This document shows, in pieces, positions 3,890 through 61,268 of a stretch of 64,000 nt of DNA (the first letter of the stretch is position 1; the number at the start of each line of letters is the position of its first letter). The stretch comes from Candidatus Hinthialibacter antarcticus (lineage in GTDB: Bacteria > Hinthialibacterota > Hinthialibacteria > Hinthialibacterales > Hinthialibacteraceae). The notes beneath the pieces were generated by a model. That model did not search any database. It was given only the letters and a program-made list of their open reading frames with translations, and had not been told where the DNA came from. Made by a program: the position numbers and the translations under genes. The stretch lies in assembly GCA_030765645.1 (NCBI GenBank), contig JAVCCE010000074.1:41551-105550 (forward strand). The letters run 5' to 3'.

Positions 3890-4029
3890 TTTCCCTTCAA
3901 ACCCGTAACTCGCAAACGAAACGGGAGATAGGCTTTTCTACCATGCAAGCGCCATGCGGTCAATCGCCGGGCGAATTTTGATTTGATTTTTGGGGGCGTC
4001 TTCACTGGCGCCTGCGTCCACACAAGCGT

Positions 4030-5324: not shown

Positions 5325-5487
5325 CCTAATATTCCTTTCAAATGAATACCCCCGCCGCAAGCAGCGGGGTATCAAATCAAGTATTTATAGTGCTTGTCAG
5401 AATACTATGCGGATTGATCTTTCATAACTGTATCCATCGCTGAGCCCTACGGGCGCGCTTCAGGTACATACTATTTGACAAACGCTT

Positions 5488-5676
5488 TTGAAGCCATCTC
5501 AAAAATACTTGACCTTCGCTGCGTTTGGCATGTGTACAACTTTGCTCGCTTCAGTGCGGGCTTTCAGGCCCTTTTGCACAGGCGCTCCCAGAGTTGCACC
5601 CATGCCTGAGACGACTTGTCAATTTTTGATCGGTCGGAATCCCATTTCGTTATCAGTATTTTTGAGATGGCTTCAA
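5488..5676. mobile_element. MITE-like nonautonomous element bounded by perfect 22-bp terminal inverted repeats (TTGAAGCCATCTCAAAAATACT).
   Basis: 5488-5509 is the exact reverse complement of 5655-5676. The interior carries the 80-nt repeat unit also found at 35344-35423 and 60944-61023. No clean target-site duplication was seen. Confidence 0.45.
5527..5606. repeat. 80-nt structured repeat unit, copy 1 of 3, with imperfect terminal inverted repeats GGCATGTGTACAAC / GTTGCACCCATGCC.
   Basis: Its reverse complement aligns at about 85% identity with 60944-61023, and at lower identity with 35344-35423. The ORF-track 'proteins' 5488-5715 and 60877-61209 share a peptide only because they translate this repeat. 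Confidence 0.6.
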
Positions 5677-5800
5677 GTAATCTTTGCGCCCCAAGGGGCG
5701 AGGAATCAAACCTGATAACCATTCAAAGCAACACGCCTAAACAGAATATGCGTTTGAGTATGGCAAAAAATCAGCGAAGGATCAATGAATCAATGAAATT

Positions 5801-6229
5801 TTATGATTGCGACTGCATTTGCTCCAGCAGCCAGGCGGGCATACGCTGCGGGGCGAGTCGTCCGTTCTTGAGCGCGGTGCAGACCATCTTGGTATAGCCG
5901 CGCGCGATCTCTTCCCGTTCGCCGTCTTTGTTTATGCGCGTGATGGTATAGGTAAAATCCAGGAAGGCTTTTCCGCCCGCTTCGACGCGGGTTTCAATGT
6001 CCAGCGCGTCGCCCAGTTTGGCCGACAACAAATAATCGGCCTCGGCGCGGCGGCAGACAAACAGGCAGTTGCGCTCCTCAAGTTCAGGCAGAGTGAATCC
6101 CGCCGCCTCGACATACAGAGCGCGGGCGTATTCAAACAGGCGCAGGTAGTTGGCGTAATAAACCACTCCGCCCGCGTCGGTGTCGGCGTAAATGACTTTG
6201 TATGGAAAGGTACGCGTGGGAAATGACAT
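5801..6229 (-). CDS. Acyl-CoA thioesterase, hotdog fold (YbgC / 4-hydroxybenzoyl-CoA thioesterase family).
   Basis: 142 aa. 'YKVIYADTDAGGVVYYANYLRLFEYAR' is the characteristic 4HBT N-terminal catalytic motif. Confidence 0.75.
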   Translation of the reverse strand: MSFPTRTFPYKVIYADTDAGGVVYYANYLRLFEYARALYVEAAGFTLPELEERNCLFVCRRAEADYLLSAKLGDALDIETRVEAGGKAFLDFTYTITRINKDGEREEIARGYTKMVCTALKNGRLAPQRMPAWLLEQMQSQS

Positions 6230-6335
6230 AGCCTCGCTCTGACTGTTCGAGATATTGCACTGGCGGGTTAAGAACCCACCTTACGGTTATTGCACTGCTG
6301 CATGTTGCGAGTGTCGTTGCGAGCGAAGCGACGCA

Positions 6336-6356
6336 ACCTGCCTGCGGCAGGCAGGT
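6336..6356. repeat. Palindrome ACCTGCCTGCGGCAGGCAGGT, copy 1 of 3 (others at 35264-35288 and 60839-60857).
   Basis: Perfect hairpin. The same CCTGCCTGC-N-GCAGGCAGG core recurs twice elsewhere, each time embedded in repeat clusters. Confidence 0.6.
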
Positions 6357-6429
6357 CTCGTATTCGACAGAACAGATCGCATCGGTCGTTATACTCCATC
6401 GCGATGACGCGAATGATAGAGAGAGCGAC

Positions 6430-6545
6430 AATATTGTCCCTTCTCCCCCTGGGAGAAGGATAGGATGAGGGTTGAAAAATTTGTGAATCAGAAGCCCTCA
6501 CCCCAACCCTCTCCCAAAGGGAGAGGGAGTCTGGCAGCCCCCGCG
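6430..6545. repeat. Composite structured intergenic element: two similar 9-bp-stem hairpins (CCTTCTCCC-cctg-GGAGAAGG and CCCTCTCCC-aaa-GGGAGAGGG), joined by an inverted pair GAGGGTTG/CAACCCTC.
   Basis: Read directly between the lon stop and the thioesterase start. It could serve as the lon terminator or as a REP-type element. Confidence 0.4.
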
Positions 6546-6610
6546 CTCACGATGACGCGATCCTTAATTCACAAGACAATCGCTGCCATCAAAATCAATA
6601 CTGCAACGCG

Positions 6611-9043
<2,433 letters not shown>

Positions 9044-10203: not shown

Positions 10204-10382
10204 CTCAAAAAGCAATGTCATTGACTTAAGGGGTGGCAAGCCAAGGCGTCGCGAAGTGAGGGCAGACCTTGATGCAACGAAATCAAAAATATCAGCCCTG
10301 TAGGGGCGCAACGTGTTGCGCCCGAATCCCCCCTTATAAAAGAGGGGCTAAAAGTCTTAAGTCAATGACATTGCCTCAAAAA
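10204..10382. mobile_element. MITE: 163-bp element with perfect 19-bp TIRs (GCAATGTCATTGACTTAAG), flanked by an 8-bp direct target-site duplication CTCAAAAA.
   Basis: TIR-L 10212-10230 and TIR-R 10356-10374. TSD copies lie at 10204-10211 and 10375-10382. The interior holds a REP-like GGGTGGCAAGCCAAGGCGTCGCGAAG (10231-10256) and a GGGCGCAACgtgtTGCGCCC hairpin. It sits in the accA upstream intergenic region. Confidence 0.55.
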
Positions 10383-14120: not shown

Positions 14121-14331
14121 GGATGCGCTGTTGCGAAAAAAAGTAACCATCTCAAAAACAATGATGACGAAAAGGGCTACGACGAATTAGAGCGTTTGAC
14201 AAAAGACTGTGCGTTAAGCGCGCCCGTAGATCTCAGCGATAGATACAGTTATGAAAACTCAATCCTCACTTCCATTCGGTTATCAGATTTGGTAGGGTGA
14301 ATGGATACTGATTCAAGCCAAAGGACCAATT

Positions 14332-17056: not shown

Positions 17057-17722
17057 TTAATTGTTAAAACAAAATTGGCAGCGAATAAAAATGTCGCCCC
17101 GGCTGTTCAACCCATTGGTGGCGTCAAACGGCAGCCCGCGCGTCTGGTTGCCTTGCGACGAAACCGAGTCGCCTAATATCCCGTCGGGGCCGGCGCCAAC
17201 CACTGCGTATTCACCATCTTTCAGCGGAGTGATTGTTGAAGACGATTGCTCGCGGTGCTGTAAAGCGTAAAACATCATGTCGCCCCCAGGAATCTGCGGG
17301 TCTTCATCAACATACACATACGTATCGAGGATGCTCTCAAACCCGCGTTGGTCTAATTCGCCGCGCCGGTCTAAAAACGGGTCTAACGGCACCGTCGACA
17401 TATACGCAATCGGCGACGTCAACACCGCTAAAATGAGTTTTGCCGAACGCTGCCCCGCGACGGCGGCGCCCACGTTGTTGAATTGTTCTTCTAAGATTTG
17501 CTTGCCTTCTGCGGTCTCGTAATCCCACACGTCAATCGGTAAGTAGCCCGAGTCGAGTTCTAACATTTGGACTGAAGTATAGACGCTGCGCAGGTCAGAC
17601 ATATTACGCGATAGTTTTGCCTTTACTTGCGCATTCAAAAAATTGGGCACAGCAATCGCGGCGAGAATACCAATAATCGCGACAACAATTAATAATTCGA
17701 TCAGCGTGAATCCACGTTTCAT
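17057..17722 (-). CDS. Prepilin-type N-terminal cleavage/methylation domain protein (type II secretion pseudopilin / type IV pilin-like).
   Basis: 'MKRGFTLIELLIVVAIIGILAAIAVPNF' is a canonical class-III signal (G-F-T-L-I-E). The gene lies in an AT-rich islet. Confidence 0.7.
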   Translation of the reverse strand: MKRGFTLIELLIVVAIIGILAAIAVPNFLNAQVKAKLSRNMSDLRSVYTSVQMLELDSGYLPIDVWDYETAEGKQILEEQFNNVGAAVAGQRSAKLILAVLTSPIAYMSTVPLDPFLDRRGELDQRGFESILDTYVYVDEDPQIPGGDMMFYALQHREQSSSTITPLKDGEYAVVGAGPDGILGDSVSSQGNQTRGLPFDATNGLNSRGDIFIRCQFCFNN

Positions 17723-17781
17723 TTGATTTGTCCTGTCTGTTTTTTAGATTGGATAATGCGCGTTGATGAGCCAAGCGCAGA

Positions 17782-18290: not shown

Positions 18291-18388
18291 CTGAACCTAG
18301 TGGCGAACCAAGGCGGCGCGCAACGGCGATAACTCTTGAGATAGGGTGGCAAGGGCAAGAACGAGCAGAGCGAGTTCAGCCCTTGAGG
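18291..18388. repeat. REP array immediately 3' of the RAYT gene.
   Basis: Contains motif 1 (TGGCGAACCAAGGCGGCGCGCAACGG) and motif 2 (GGGTGGCAAGGGCAAGAACGAGCAGAGCGAGTTCAGCCCTTGAGG). 18322-18386 is identical to 19250-19314. Confidence 0.7.
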
Positions 18389-18389
18389 G

Positions 18390-18947
18390 TTAGGCTTCCC
18401 AGTATTCCCACCAGCGATCAACTCGAAAGACTTTGTCATCATCTATTTCATAATTTCTAAAACTTGAATGAGGCCATTGACCGGGAGAATTGACAAGCCT
18501 TCGTACAACAGGGTTCTGATGGCAGTATGTAAGTTTCTCAATTAGTTTTTCTTGTGTGAATATATTAAAATCATAGAAACGCTCTTGCCACAATTTATTT
18601 TCTTCAACGCCCTTTTCTCGAAACGCTTTTAATACATTGATCGAAACATACCATTTTAACGCGCCTACAATTTTCGAAATTGGTTGCTCTTGTTTGGCAG
18701 CAAGTAAAAAATGCGCATGTTCAGGCATAATGACATACCCAAAAACAAAAAACTCTTTTTTATTGCGAATATGATCTATGGAATGAAGAACGATTTTGCG
18801 AATTTCAAATGAGTCAAAAAACGGTTTTCTTTGACAGCATGATGTAGTTACAAAATGAACGTGCCCTTTTTCGTTAATGCGAACAGGATGAACCTTGTTC
18901 TTGAAATCAGGATTCAGTAATGACGAATCGTGTTTTTTTAAATTCAT
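18390..18947 (-). CDS. REP-associated tyrosine transposase (RAYT, TnpA-REP; IS200/IS605 Y1 HuH family).
   Basis: 185 aa. 'GHVHFVTT' is the Y1 N-terminal motif. 'MPEHAHFLL' is the HuH motif. 'LTYCHQNPVVRRL' holds the catalytic Tyr upstream of NPV. Lower GC than surroundings, with REP arrays on both sides. Confidence 0.8.
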   Translation of the reverse strand: MNLKKHDSSLLNPDFKNKVHPVRINEKGHVHFVTTSCCQRKPFFDSFEIRKIVLHSIDHIRNKKEFFVFGYVIMPEHAHFLLAAKQEQPISKIVGALKWYVSINVLKAFREKGVEENKLWQERFYDFNIFTQEKLIEKLTYCHQNPVVRRLVNSPGQWPHSSFRNYEIDDDKVFRVDRWWEYWEA

Positions 18948-18975
18948 TTTAGACTTAAAATACGATGAAAGATTG

Positions 18976-19012
18976 CTTCAAGGGCTGGCCTTCGGCCTTG
19001 CCCTTGCCACCC
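18976..19012. repeat. REP (reverse orientation) immediately 5' of the RAYT gene: CTTCAAGGGCTGGCCTTCGGCCTTGCCCTTGCCACCC.
   Basis: Reverse complement of the motif-2 ends (GGGTGGCAAGGGCAAG...GCCCTTGAAG) with a different central loop. Confidence 0.65.
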
Positions 19013-19220
19013 AACATCCCTGAAAAAGAAAAACCCACCGAAGTAAGCGTGCAAAGCAGAGGCCCGGCGGGTGTACTAACTATAATATTACAAACATACA
19101 CGCAAATGTCCACGGTTATTACCATACACTTTAGGAAAACATATTTAAAACGTGCGAATTAAACACAGTGTAAACAAATATCAAGTATTTGAATAGCATA
19201 AAAATGCCAAAGAATAAGAT

Positions 19221-19316
19221 GAGCCGGGTGGCGAGCCAAGGCGTCGCGAAGCGGCGATAACTCTTGAGATAGGGTGGCAAGGGCAAGAACGAGCAGAGCG
19301 AGTTCAGCCCTTGAGG
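19221..19316. repeat. REP array (motif 1 plus motif 2), a near-duplicate of 18301-18388.
   Basis: GAGCCGGGTGGCGAGCCAAGGCGTCGCGAAGCGGCGATAACTCTTGAGATAGGGTGGCAAGGGCAAGAACGAGCAGAGCGAGTTCAGCCCTTGAGG. Confidence 0.7.
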
Positions 19317-22495: not shown

Positions 22496-22697
22496 CACCG
22501 CAAACAAAAATCTTGTGTTAGACAAAAAAACAGATAGCCTAAAAGTAGAAAATCAGCTATTGACTAGATTCAATCCGCGTGTAATTTACGCGCAAGAACA
22601 CTCGCCGAATGAAACGGCGGGAAGCACAGGAAATCATTAGATGATCTCACCCTACAGACGACCCTACCGTAGGCTGGGAGATCAGAGGAGAGCGGCC

Positions 22698-23129
22698 ATG
22701 CAGACAGTCCATCCGCGGTTGAGGAACGCAGTGGTTCCAGTTCAATTCTTCGTCGCAACAAAACTTACAGAAAGCGCAGTCGCCATTTGGTCGGTTGACC
22801 CAAGCGGTCAGGTACAGCCCGCCTTGCTGGCGATTAACTATGAAAGCGATGAATCGCTTTCCTCTCCTGACGACGTGATCTTCTCGGATTGGGACAATGA
22901 AGATGACGACTATGACTACGACGATGGTTTAGATGACGACCTCGATGACGATGACGACGATGATCTGGACGACGACGACGACGACGATGATGACGATGAT
23001 GATGATGATGACTTAGATGACGACCTCGATGATGATGACGACGACGAAGAGGACGAAGATGAAGAGGACGGCTTCGATGACGACATTGACGATATCGAGA
23101 TTGGCGCCGATGACGAAGATGAATTTTAG
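22698..23129 (+). CDS. Extremely acidic Asp-rich (poly-D) low-complexity protein, 143 aa.
   Basis: GAGGAG SD with a 7-nt spacer before the ATG at 22698. The C-terminal 95 aa is about 70% Asp/Glu ('DDDLDDDDDDDLDDDDDDDDDDDDDDD'). GAT/GAC codons alternate. A strong terminator follows directly. Confidence 0.5.
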   Translation: MQTVHPRLRNAVVPVQFFVATKLTESAVAIWSVDPSGQVQPALLAINYESDESLSSPDDVIFSDWDNEDDDYDYDDGLDDDLDDDDDDDLDDDDDDDDDDDDDDDLDDDLDDDDDDEEDEDEEDGFDDDIDDIEIGADDEDEF

Positions 23130-29400: not shown

Positions 29401-29462
29401 TCACATCTCCAATCGTTCAAGGTTCTGTAGCGATTGTTAAACGATGTTCGGTCAGCGCGCCC

Positions 29463-29520
29463 GAAGGGCTTCGCGATAGATCAATTGACGAAAACTCAAT
29501 CCGAACACAAATCTGACAAC
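29463..29520. repeat. 58-bp dispersed repeat, copy 1 of 2 (the other at 60865-60920, about 80% identity).
   Basis: GCGATAGATcaattgacgAAAACTCAATCCGaACACaaaTCTGaCAACCACTATAAAA read against GCGATAGATaccgttacggAAACTCAATCCGcACAgtatTCTGgCAACCACTATAAAA. Confidence 0.55.
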
Positions 29521-29553
29521 CACTATAAAAAAGAACCCGACCGACGCGAGAGG

Positions 29554-33386: not shown

Positions 33387-33590
33387 AATTCACCTTTTGA
33401 TTTCGAGAGAGTGACAGCTAGTTTATCTTGGGGGGGCTAATCATTGAAGGAGAAGCGAATTACATAAAAAAATCTAAAGATATTCTGTTTGAACCGAAGC
33501 AAGTAGAGTTGCGCCCATGCCAAGAGCGACAACATGCTAGCCTTATTGAGATTCTTTCCAGGAGAAATAGCGGTAAAACCGCGCCGTCGG

Positions 33591-33643: not shown

Positions 33644-33714
33644 GGCGGCTTAGCCAAGTGGTAAGGCAGAGGACTGCAAATTCTCTATCCCCGGTTCGAA
33701 TCCGGGAGCCGCCT
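33644..33714 (+). tRNA. tRNA-Cys (anticodon GCA).
   Basis: Acceptor stem GGCGGCT/AGCCGCC, D-arm 'TAGCCAAGTGGTAAGGC', anticodon stem GAGGA/TTCTC with loop CTGCAAA, T-arm CCGGGTTCGAATCCCGG, discriminator T. CCA is not encoded. Confidence 0.85.
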
Positions 33715-35080: not shown

Positions 35081-35252
35081 TGTTTTTCACCGATTTAGTC
35101 GTTGGGGAATTTCGTATTAATGAAGAAAACAGGAATAAAAAACAGTATTTCACCAAATATTTTTCAAACTTCAGTCCCCCATTTTAAACCCCACCCATAG
35201 ATGTCTCATATCGTAAAAATAAAGTCAAGCACTTTTTTTGAAAAACAGATTT

Positions 35253-35316
35253 CTTCAAGGGCTGAACCTGCCTGCGGCAAGCAGGTTCGCTACGCTCATT
35301 CTTGCCCTTACCACCC
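35253..35316. repeat. REP (motif-2 ends, reverse orientation) with the CCTGCCTGCGGCAAGCAGG palindrome inserted in its loop.
   Basis: CTTCAAGGGCTGAACctgcctgcggcaagcaggttcgctacgctcATTCTTGCCCTTACCACCC. Its ends match 18976-19012 and the reverse complement of 18345-18388. Confidence 0.6.
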
Positions 35317-35343
35317 CGCCATTGATACGAGTTTACAGTCCTG

Positions 35344-35423
35344 GCGTGGGGGCGCCTCTGTGAGCGCCTGTGCAGAAGGGCATGAAAACCCGCACCGAAG
35401 CGAAAAGAGACGTACCCACGCCA
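35344..35423. repeat. 80-nt structured repeat unit, copy 2 of 3 (terminal IR GGCGTGGG / CCCACGCC).
   Basis: The core 'GGGGCGCCTCTGTGAGCGCCTGTGCAGAAGGGCATGAAAACCCGCACCGAAGCGA' aligns with 60957-61005 and the reverse complement of 5545-5593. Confidence 0.55.
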
Positions 35424-35452
35424 GTGCCGATTGTTTGCCCTTATACATCACA

Positions 35453-35497
35453 CAATCAACCGCCGTCTTGTTTCCAAGGCGGCGGTTGATTGTTTTA
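35453..35497. terminator. 13-bp-stem hairpin (CAATCAACCGCCG / CGGCGGTTGATTG) downstream of argF. The T-run is on the plus-strand side only.
   Basis: Read directly. It may terminate the arg operon (minus strand) as a U-tract-less hairpin, or act bidirectionally. Confidence 0.35.
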
Positions 35498-35511
35498 TAT
35501 GAATTGGATTT

Positions 35512-36447
35512 TTACGCTGATTGATCGAAGAGGTATTTCATCAACGCTTTTTGGGTGTGCAGGCGGTTTTCAGCTTGCTCAAAGACGACTGAGCGGTCGG
35601 ATTCTAACACACCGTCGGTAATCTCTTCGCCGCGATGCGCGGGCAGGCAGTGCATCACCACCGCATGATTCGGCGCCTGGCTCAGCAAGCCCTCGTTCAC
35701 CTGATAACCCTGAAACACGCGCTTGCGCTCGTCGGTTTCTTTTTCCTGCCCCATGCTAGTCCACACGTCGGTGTAAATCGCGTCAGCGCTCTTCACTGCC
35801 TTGACCGGGTCGAGTTCAAAGGTGATCGCCCCGCCCCAATCGTGCGACATTTCGCGCCCCTGCCAGGTCATCGACGGGTCTGGCTCATAACCGCTGGGCG
35901 TACACACCGTCAAATGGAAGCCGAGCAGCCCGGCGATGAGAATCAGCGAATTGCATACGTTGTTGCCATCGCCGATGAAGGTCAGGTTGAAACCTTCCAG
36001 ATCGCCGCGCTCGCGCAGGCAGTCCCAAACGGTAAACAGGTCGGCAATCGCCTGACACGGGTGGCCTTCGTCTGACAGCGCGTTAATGACTGGAATGTCC
36101 GCATACTTGGCAAGGTCCATAATCGACTGCTGCGAAAACACGCGCGCGACCACCAAATCGACCCAGCGCGCCAGGTTGCGGGCCACATCTTTGACCGGCT
36201 CGCGCTTGCCCAGGTTGATATCCTGGTTGGTCAAATACACGGAATAGCCGCCCAACTGTTGAATGCCTGCCTCGAAAGTGACCTTGGTGCGCAACGATTG
36301 CTTTTCGTTAATCATCGCCATGGTCTTGCCTTCGAGCGCTTTAGAAAATGCGCGCGGATCGGCTTTCATTTCAGCGGACAGTTGAAAGATCGCGAGTAAA
36401 TCTTCGCGGTTTAGGTCGGTAATGAGTCTCAGGTCGCGTTTTTTCAT
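35512..36447 (-). CDS. argF: Ornithine carbamoyltransferase.
   Basis: 'STRTR'-equivalent 'SLRTKVTFE' carbamoyl-phosphate site. 'HCLPAHRGEE' ornithine-binding HCLP motif. Start at 'MKKRDL', adjacent to the argD stop. Confidence 0.9.
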   Translation of the reverse strand: MKKRDLRLITDLNREDLLAIFQLSAEMKADPRAFSKALEGKTMAMINEKQSLRTKVTFEAGIQQLGGYSVYLTNQDINLGKREPVKDVARNLARWVDLVVARVFSQQSIMDLAKYADIPVINALSDEGHPCQAIADLFTVWDCLRERGDLEGFNLTFIGDGNNVCNSLILIAGLLGFHLTVCTPSGYEPDPSMTWQGREMSHDWGGAITFELDPVKAVKSADAIYTDVWTSMGQEKETDERKRVFQGYQVNEGLLSQAPNHAVVMHCLPAHRGEEITDGVLESDRSVVFEQAENRLHTQKALMKYLFDQSA

Positions 36448-58974: not shown

Positions 58975-59330
58975 TTTCAAGTAGGGTGGCGTTGAGCGCA
59001 GCGAAACCCACCAATAGAAGCGTATCGAAAAAGCGCATCGAAAACCAAAGGTGGGATTCATTGCATTCATCCCACCCTACGGGGGCTGCTTAGATTGATC
59101 CCCCCAGGTGATTATGAAACCAATCCCGTCGCGGTGAATGCCCCCCTTGAAAAAAGGGGGGTGGCGCTGAAAGCGCCGGGGGGATTCGGGCGCAACACGT
59201 TTTCTTTTCATGCGGCTCACCAGGAGGTTCGCCCTCCCCAGATCATTCAATATATTGGTGGGTTATTATCTACCGCTAATGATGATTGAAACATTGCATG
59301 GTGGGCTGTTCGCGCGAGCCCACCCTACCA
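58975..59330. repeat. Cluster of GGTGGG...CCCACCCTAC hairpins downstream of pyrG (58975-59005, 59071-59102, 59299-59330).
   Basis: GGTGGGATtcattgcattcATCCCACCCTAC and GGTGGGCTgttcgcgcgAGCCCACCCTACC are paralogous hairpins. The first, 'GGGTGGCgttgagcgcaGCGAA', resembles REP motif 1. Confidence 0.45.
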
Positions 59331-59341
59331 GGCTCATTCAA

Positions 59342-60741: not shown

Positions 60742-60838
60742 TTTCAACGCCTACTTACCAGTGACGAAACGCAACCAGCGGGCTATTGTATGCGACTAGA
60801 ACGTTTGTCAAAAATATGTGCATAAAGCGCGCCCGCAG

Positions 60839-61023
60839 CCTGCCTGCTGCAGGCAGGGGCTCAGCGATAGATACCGTTACGGAAACTCAATCCGCACAGT
60901 ATTCTGGCAACCACTATAAAATAACCATCTCGAAACCAATTTCGGCATGAGTGCAACTGTGGGAGCGCCTGTGTAACAGGGCCTGGAAGCCCGCACCGAA
61001 GCGAGCAGATTTGTACACATGCC
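60839..61023. repeat. Composite repeat cluster: palindrome CCTGCCTGCTGCAGGCAGG (60839-60857), the 58-bp repeat (60865-60920) and the 80-nt unit copy 3 (60944-61023, inverted relative to copy 1).
   Basis: Each sub-element has paralogs elsewhere in the window, at 6336/35264, 29463, and 5527/35344. Confidence 0.55.
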
Positions 61024-61268
61024 TTTCGCAGCGAATGAGCAAGTAGCATTTAGCATTGAGATGGCGTCTTGGGTTCGCGTAATACAGTCTGCCTGCGCAT
61101 TCAGTCGCAGGGGATTGGGTGGAGCAGCTTTCGGAGTCAGCGGCAATAAGCCGCGACGGAGACAAGCGGAATCCAACCCCGAGATTGAATGCGTCGCACA
61201 AGAACGCACGATTCTATAAAATTACTTTTTTACGGCATTTTCTGAAGGAGCGGGGAGTTATGCCAGAC

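Follow-up and report, generated by a model that had tools for sequence, protein, structure and literature searches.

The DNA considered here, in the following called the window, is a stretch of 64,000 nucleotides (nt) of contig JAVCCE010000074.1 from Candidatus Hinthialibacter antarcticus, an Ace Lake lineage which belongs to the candidate phylum Hinthialibacterota (PMC9324843). It carries at 5488..5676, on the minus strand, a full-length structured element of 189 nt, which we refer to as copy 1 of a family of interspersed repeats. In sense orientation, copy 1 consists of the 5' arm of an outer helix P0 (5655..5676, TTGAAGCCATCTCAAAAATACT), a 5' linker (5607..5654, …GAAAYGGGMTYCCG…ATCAAAAATTGACAA…TCA), an 80-nt hairpin unit (5527..5606), a 3' linker (5510..5526, AAACGCAGCGAAGGTCA, running into …AAG) and the 3' arm of P0 (5488..5509, AGTATTTTTGAGATGGCTTCAA), all on the minus strand. 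As stated in an initial annotation of this DNA, the two arms form a perfect inverted repeat, with complementarity at 22 of 22 positions; by our own estimate, the chance expectation is approximately 1e-8 per 600-nt region. Both arms are defined by this complementarity, by the arm cores recurring in the family and by the covariation count described below. The same annotation assigned terminal inverted repeats to the 80-nt unit itself. These are indeed present, GGCATGTGTACAAC and GTTGCACCCATGCC, and pair as an 18-bp basal stem which leads to an apical GGGC-CUGAAA-GCCC hairpin. The complete 189 nt fold into a three-way structure of -80.7 kcal/mol (z = -8.0). A covariance model of the unit identifies the minus strand as the sense strand, with 98 bits compared to 20.8 bits on the plus strand.

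Three copies of the conserved core were annotated initially. Our core pattern matches the window three times, with no match in 100 shuffled versions, and the covariance model, run with filters switched off, finds the same three as the only full copies in 64 kb. Copy 2 (35343..35422, plus strand) is a hairpin unit without P0 arms, antisense to the flanking OTC and RmuC genes. Copy 3 (60924..61068, plus strand) is shortened on its 5' side; its hairpin unit at 60944-61023 is preceded by an arm-like ACCATCTCGA at 60924-60933 and followed by the 3' linker and the arm TTGAGATGGC at 61056-61065. The positions annotated for copies 1 and 3 hold, while copy 2 had been shifted by one nucleotide, to 35344-35423. 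Copy 3 is inverted relative to copy 1, as reported; copy 2, which had been given the orientation of copy 1, is inverted as well. Self-alignment pairs 5526-5606 with 35423-35343 and 5490-5606 with 61068-60944; copies 2 and 3 share one orientation (35343-35422 matches 60944-61023), and both are reverse-complemented relative to 5527-5606. The homology between copies 1 and 3 exceeds 80 nt and extends through 5490-5526. A fourth copy, truncated at its 5' side (33494..33559, plus strand), retains the 3' half of the hairpin (CCGAAGCAAGTAGAGTTGCGCCCATGCC), the linker and an arm-like TTGAGATTCT. It is located about 85 nt upstream of the tRNA-Cys gene at 33644, the only hit of a scan for tRNA and tmRNA. 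All copies are intergenic on a rough map of open reading frames (ORFs), in line with what had been noted for the three full copies. Spurious ORFs overlie them at 5488-5715, 35201-35524 and 60877-61209, and the peptide common to the first and the last of these arises, as recognised before, solely from the repeat.

The covariance model of the 80-nt unit, R1, gathered 58 copies, 55 of them distinct, from three sources: the window, one related metagenome-assembled genome (MAG) and one JGI metagenome. When one genome for each of 185,579 species was scanned with the exact pattern, the only further assembly with the unit was the MAG CAZKYC01 (GCA_964556895.1), with approximately 21 pattern matches; the loci of this MAG hold at least 28 copies. 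A looser pattern was run on 241 million metagenome records and yielded 29 copies, which occur only on contigs of the JGI samples Ga0222672 and Ga0222663; all other matches failed the covariance model. Among the rejected candidates are pattern matches in Streptomyces, Oscillospiraceae, Phycisphaerae and others, several of them high in GC content, for which the model gave no score. Viral contigs, plasmids and phages contain no match to the unit. Rfam 15 has no family for it: at the gathering threshold only the tRNA-Cys is reported, and a search of 5350-5800 at E<=10 returns two chance-level hits outside the unit. Since the unit is found only in one other MAG and two JGI samples, and Rfam, viral, plasmid and phage sequences contribute nothing, the family is undescribed until now and confined to a narrow lineage. 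A comparison of Ga0222672 contigs with the window found no shared genes, the contigs being too short to establish orthology.

The model scores the sense strand with 40-108 bits and the reverse strand of the same sites with 16-36 bits, and the unit therefore has a defined polarity, minus for copy 1 and plus for copies 2 and 3. From its base to its tip, the hairpin is composed of the 18-bp basal stem, a loop GGAG/AG, a helix CGC/GCG, a loop CU/UGAA, a helix GUGC/GCAC, a 4-nt bulge (AAAN) and an apical stem-loop. The latter occurs as GGGC-CUGAAA-GCCC, in a form with a GGAA tetraloop, and in a second subtype with another apex. The conserved internal-loop core reads GAGCGCCUGUGC / GCACYGAAGCGA, and the core GAGCGCCUGUGC / GCACUGAAGCGA is not self-complementary. 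K-turn, loop E and tetraloop-receptor motifs were considered for the internal loops by inspection, and none of them fits.

Compensatory base changes, which the initial annotation had suggested to look for, are present in the basal stem as well as in the outer helix. Among the 55 distinct copies, 93% of the cells are paired and 11 of the 18 basal pairs are changed on both sides; pair 9-95, for example, is seen as A-U, G-C, U-A and C-G. Over the hairpin, both-side changes amount to 62 cells, compared to 14.3±3.2 in shuffled alignments (reached in 0 of 500) and 9-22 in slid controls. The inner helices show no variation among the copies, in part because most copies were retrieved by an exact pattern on this core. 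The compensatory changes show that pairing matters, and do not distinguish between pairing in RNA and in single-stranded DNA.

Flank alignment demonstrates that the conserved element is longer than 80 nt: including the linkers, its core comprises about 150 nt. The 5' linker of about 48 nt (…GAAACRGGCTCCGGCATWTCAAAAATTGACAAACCAATCA) contains AAATTGACAA; the 3' linker of about 20 nt reads RCAGCGAAAGRTCAAG, with the family consensus NNAYRCAGCGAAAGRTCAAG. Both are kept across the window, the MAG and the Ga0222672 population. No consensus pairing was found within them by RNAalifold, the 5' linker also showing none in the alignment, and a UUGAC/GUCAA pairing, proposed by hand, was rejected for too little support.

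Inverted arms with the cores GCCATCTCAA / TTGAGATGGC close the 150-nt core in about 12 copies, which belong to the window and the MAG; the upstream arm lies 50-55 nt and the downstream arm 23-26 nt away from the hairpin. The resulting outer helix has 12-22 bp, and the 22-bp inverted repeat of copy 1 is its best-preserved example. Inverted repeats at such a fixed distance are what one would expect of a classical miniature inverted-repeat transposable element (MITE), in which a DDE transposase binds the 22-bp terminal repeats and the 80-nt hairpin is carried along as internal cargo. Three copies lie within CTAG…CTAG, a pattern that would agree with a duplication of TA or CTAG, the palindromic CTAG being able to hide a TA duplication. 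The Ga0222672 copies are likewise framed by inverted repeats, here a different and longer pair (GGTTCATCCGGTAAGTGAGTAC… to …AAGTATCCAAATACCGGAAGAACC).

The behaviour of the arms themselves renders this explanation quite improbable. Their outer extensions vary among copies and stay complementary (CACA/TGTG, TTGAA/TTCAA, CTAGAA/TTCTAG), and compensatory changes are found further inside (CATTTCAA/TTGAAATG, CATCTTAA/TTAGATG and GCGTTCTC/GAGAAGGC). Because the outermost bases differ and nevertheless pair, the arms behave as a helix rather than as a transposase-binding end. Both-side changes in the outer helix were counted in 31 cells versus 17.9±3.2 in shuffled alignments (0 of 500) and 9-21 in slid controls, for a sample of 12 copies picked for carrying both arm cores. 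Approximately 45 of the 58 copies have no arms at all and keep the hairpin and the linkers. Thus, the view of an element encapsulating the 80-nt unit, as put forward initially, describes copy 1 reasonably well, but not most of the family. No consistent target-site duplication is observed, and in the window and about 0.7 Mb of collected loci the arm motif never occurs apart from the unit, nor does an insertion sequence with these ends. The family is modular, since the arms vary or are absent while the hairpin stays, and since the frame in Ga0222672 is a different one.

In their placement and turnover, the copies behave as interspersed repeats and not as conserved RNA genes: their positions shift between relatives, a second repeat family is inserted into one of them, and contigs break at the unit. 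An ACCA-Lon-thioesterase neighbourhood is conserved in two relatives, the thioesterases being 84% and 80% identical to that of the window. The window thioesterase is itself 100% identical to a protein listed by NCBI under a Ca. Hinthialibacter antarcticus MAG. In the related MAG, a full element (locus L114, 3796-3881) separates Lon and thioesterase, where the window has none, and the window has a copy downstream of the thioesterase. The third relative (L111) has neither copy; only module A, the second repeat family, is found there, directly 3' of the stop codon. In locus L051, an insertion of module A parts the 5' linker from the hairpin, exactly at their junction. Tandem copies are present in L008, L023 and L072. 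Independent short-read metagenome contigs end in or beside the unit, namely L001-L003 (window 5552-7017, 5624-6726 and 5769-6617), L115 and L116, which indicates that the repeats fragment the assemblies of this lineage. These contigs carry the thioesterase. No protein recurs beside the copies except for abundant prepilin-type and GFO/IDH/MocA paralogs.

A different explanation takes the copies for functional structured RNAs. These would be small RNAs encoded in many copies, or hairpins that act in cis within read-through transcripts, as stabilisers or as processing sites. The loops would then form a protein-binding site; this would be compatible with a mobile origin. The stability of the hairpins (z = -3 to -4 for each copy, besides the value given above for the 189-nt element), the significant covariation in two helices and the strong conservation of a non-palindromic core, also in copies retrieved independently of the pattern, agree with such a role. 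The same holds for one sense-strand G-U pair which is invariably G-U and never A-C (38 G-U, 0 A-C). However, the overall numbers of 85 G-U versus 45 A-C shrink to 47 versus 45 without this column, and the ratio is 8:9 in both classes of gene orientation. In this small sample, selection on one particular strand as transcribed is thus not apparent.

The neighbouring genes of 25 copies were inspected in the same respect. Only two copies lie between divergent genes, a scarcity in favour of a functional RNA; six lie between convergent genes, and the remaining ones are mixed, with ten sense and seven antisense to co-directional neighbours. A scan of copy 1 for a sigma-70-like promoter and an intrinsic terminator found neither within the element; the sole terminator-like site lies outside of it. 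A conserved TTGACA is located 11-13 nt upstream of the hairpin, with no acceptable -10 box at the right spacing on inspection. Together with the failure to match Rfam even at E<=10, the truncated and tandem copies and the lack of synteny between relatives, this leaves the small structured RNA proposed in the initial annotation without positive support, and we regard a functional RNA as unlikely.

Two further readings, an attC-like recombination site of integrons and a short conserved peptide gene, are extremely improbable. The first of them, also raised initially, draws on the imperfect hairpin with its conserved mismatches. Yet it is the interior sequence of the unit that is conserved, the opposite of attC, and its ends read GGCATGG…CCATGCC instead of R''/L''/L'/R' boxes with GTTRRRY. 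Moreover, the copies are scattered over both strands (at 5.5, 33.5, 35.3 and 60.9 kb) and form no cassette arrays, and no integrase is found among the window ORFs scanned, which were a subset. As for a peptide, 51 of 53 copies keep one antisense reading frame open, but 49 of 53 do so for a second antisense frame. The context offers neither a start codon nor a ribosome-binding site, and the variation tracks base pairing and not codons; coding potential of the unit was rejected on these grounds.

The window does contain a gene for a transposase of the kind that moves extragenic palindromes. At 18390-18947 (minus strand) lies a genuine REP-associated tyrosine transposase (RAYT; REP, repetitive extragenic palindrome), with a Pfam Y1_Tnp match of 1.7e-13 and 110.6 bits for the corresponding NCBIfam model, the cut-off of which is 80. 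It was first located with an E. coli RAYT sequence as the query. The gene appears AT-rich by eye compared to its surroundings. One may ask whether the unit is a REPIN, i.e. a REP-derived hairpin, mobilised by this enzyme: it is an extragenic imperfect palindrome with compensatory changes, as REPINs are, and a REP of the RAYT type lies 22 nt upstream of copy 2 (35255-35320), an adjacency repeated in locus L094. This fits a mosaic clustering of repeats. The RAYT itself is flanked by its own repeats (the CAAGGGC…GCCCTTGCCACCC family), in which CCACCC comes after a hairpin CAAGGGC…GCCCTTG, with copies at 18292-18388, 18975-19010 (inverted) and 19220-19316. A 56%-identical RAYT of another organism (L117, 3001-3564) is flanked by an analogous GGGTRCCCAGGGCAAGG… REP. 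The covariance model finds no unit near the window RAYT or at the homologous locus, and the unit is not a symmetric REP doublet, as the scores of 98 and 21 bits on its two strands demonstrate, together with 74-108 bits for sense strands compared to 16-36 bits for antisense strands in the family. Since different REPs flank both RAYTs and no unit is nearby, the unit is not the cognate repeat of the REP-RAYT system of this genome, and mobilisation by the window RAYT is largely refuted and very improbable.

Implementing all these observations, we assign a probability of roughly 0.6 to the reading that we have here a lineage-restricted family of non-autonomous, non-coding structured interspersed repeats of about 80-190 nt, of the MITE or REPIN kind, in Ca. 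Hinthialibacter and its close relatives. Repetition, intergenic location, a covarying hairpin, missing positional conservation, truncation, tandem copies and nesting are directly observed. The copies are small, non-coding and numerous, and their presence or absence differs between relatives, as is characteristic of MITEs. The nested MITE of the initial annotation thus comes closest in its multi-copy, non-coding and intergenic nature and its shifting positions, whereas a target-site duplication and, in the sequence searched, a parent insertion sequence were not found.

Mechanistically, the functional module would be the strand-asymmetric, imperfect hairpin of about 80 nt plus the conserved unpaired linkers. 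The element may spread, or may have spread, via a folded single-stranded intermediate, and a trans-acting enzyme would read the conserved loops and mismatches of the hairpin as well as the linkers. Only copies with still-pairing stems would then propagate, which would result in the compensatory changes. HUH/Y1 enzymes recognise imperfect hairpins together with short flanking sequences and leave no duplication. For this reason, structure-specific enzymes of this class, such as the IS200/IS605 TnpA and RAYTs, may serve as a precedent by analogy. Mobility, the single-stranded substrate and the class of enzyme are what we infer.

Several points weigh against the interspersed-repeat reading. No transposase or candidate enzyme linked to the family was found near the copies, and a direct-repeat check revealed no target-site duplication at the arm-bearing copies w5527 (copy 1), L006, L011, L029b, L044 and L016. 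There is no clean pair of an empty and a filled site: L111 is devoid of the element downstream of the thioesterase but differs by another 124 nt. The boundaries given for the element are therefore provisional, and its mobility is putative. The compensatory changes could equally reflect an RNA function at the level of the host. Finally, most copies were retrieved by an exact-match pattern on the apical core, so that the invariance of this core is partly built in; independently it is supported by only about eight copies, which were found by the model without the pattern and still hold GAGCGCCUGUGC and GCRC-YRAA-SCGA.

From a biological point of view, the core may also be taken one step further. 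Its GAGCGCCUGUGC / GCACYGAAGCGA loops, the fixed G·U/T pair and the conserved, single-stranded flanks TTGACAA… and …CAGCGAAAGRTCAAG might constitute a new structure-specific recognition module. This could be the substrate of an enzyme for single-strand transposition or recombination that is so far unrecognised in Ca. Hinthialibacterota and differs from the RAYT, or a multi-copy RNA recruited by the host. We put this forward tentatively and hold it to be rather unlikely.

The spacers which harbour the unit contain further repeats. Module A is a separate, TIR-bearing repeat of about 105 nt, with terminal inverted repeats (TIRs) of approximately AGYGYTTGTCARAATASTATG and a variable, GC-rich central hairpin, and often adjoins the unit. 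Its copies lie at 5384-5486, 14191-14269, 29429-29530 and 60802-60921 in the window, and at 4428-4545 in L111, about 1008-1093 in L051 and 1244-1363 in L021. A small hairpin repeat, CGCCCCAAGGGGCG then AGGAATYAAACC, adjoins unit elements at 5683-5711 of the window and at about 3990-4020 of locus L023 of the MAG, in opposite relative orientations. Another recurrent hairpin, GGTGGGTTCTTAACCCRCC, occurs upstream of the thioesterase start in the window (about 6262-6282) and in L111 (3949-3968), and also in the flanks of L091 and L056. The spacer between Lon and thioesterase (6230-6610) has further palindromes, GGGAGAGGGTTGGGGTGAGGG and CTGCCTGCCGCAGGCAGG, and is wholly different in three related genomes. 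Segments of the window at 10247-10375, 59139-59341, 61106-61183 and 6436-6529 are 77-98% identical to the Ga0222672 contigs L075, L090, L094, L041 and L091 and are probably additional intergenic repeat families. Near copy 2, a near-perfect palindrome, caatcaaccgccg…cggcggttgattg then TTTT (35452-35493), lies 19 nt 3' of the OTC stop codon and looks like a bidirectional intrinsic terminator.

Among the coding regions, proteins of about 200-250 amino acids share a near-identical prepilin-type N-terminus, GFTLIELLIVVAIIGILAAIAVPNFLNAQ. The window encodes one at 17057-17722 (minus strand), with the DNA repeat at 17607-17732, and ten paralogs occur in the MAG loci L004, L011, L025, L031 and L032. 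Several adjoin copies of the unit, which is probably due only to the abundance of both. An imperfect tandem repeat at 22892-23122, with a period of about 70-85 nt, overlaps ORF 22641-23129, which has no Pfam match.

For a candidate phylum of which only metagenomic sequences are known, the analysis provides an unannotated repeat family and a covariance model that works. Such repeats end short-read contigs and create spurious ORFs, and once they are known, these MAGs can be assembled, annotated and strain-typed better. The units and at least three further families of repeats jointly mark highly plastic intergenic spacers. Their two covarying helices and conserved asymmetric core make them a test case for structured miniature elements which spread without an obvious linked transposase.

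REPINs and REPs with their RAYTs, as described in Pseudomonas and Enterobacteria (PMC3116915, PMC3337134), resemble the unit as short, extragenic, multi-copy imperfect palindromes that form a long hairpin. Compensatory changes in the stem have been reported for REPIN hairpins, too (PMC3116915); lineage restriction is a further common trait, and a RAYT gene is present in this genome as well. Unlike REPINs, the unit does not consist of two REPs in inverted arrangement, and it has a strong strand asymmetry. Conservation resides in the apical and internal-loop region plus the unpaired flanks, and the repeats on both sides of the window RAYT belong to another family.

Correia elements (CREE) of Neisseria as well as ERIC, RUP and BOX-type MITEs are intergenic, non-coding, mosaic elements of 100-200 bp with terminal inverted repeats and a long hairpin, inserted in either orientation. 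Size, intergenic site, terminal inverted repeats, the fold of the whole element, modularity and either orientation are common to both. In contrast to them, no duplication of TA or another target was found here, and the terminal bases are complementary and not conserved. Most copies of the unit have no terminal repeats, and the internal 80-nt hairpin has a conserved core of its own. The BIMEs of E. coli are clusters of several short palindromic motifs in variable order and orientation within one spacer. The same mixed clustering of palindromic motifs in intergenic spacers is seen in our case, with motif sequences that are unrelated.

The ends of IS200/IS605 elements and the ORF-less PATEs exhibit an asymmetric, imperfect hairpin with conserved mismatches and conserved short flanks, and lack terminal inverted repeats and target duplications. 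The unit is similar in its asymmetric hairpin, its conserved unpaired flanks, its core free of terminal repeats and in that no target-site duplication was found. It differs in having a single hairpin instead of two different subterminal ones at the left and right end. Neither a TnpA/TnpB partner nor a conserved tetranucleotide at the target was identified, and the RAYT with its other REP is the sole Y1 enzyme that was found. In attC sites of integrons, conservation concerns the structure but not the sequence, with core sites at the ends. The unit shares with them the imperfect hairpin, to be read as a folded single strand with conserved unpaired bases. It deviates by the absence of an R''/L''/L'/R' organisation, of cassette arrays and, in the ORFs scanned, of an integrase, as well as by the reversed pattern of conservation. 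On present evidence, the kind of object is a familiar one: it represents no new class of system, and nothing about it demands a new mechanism.

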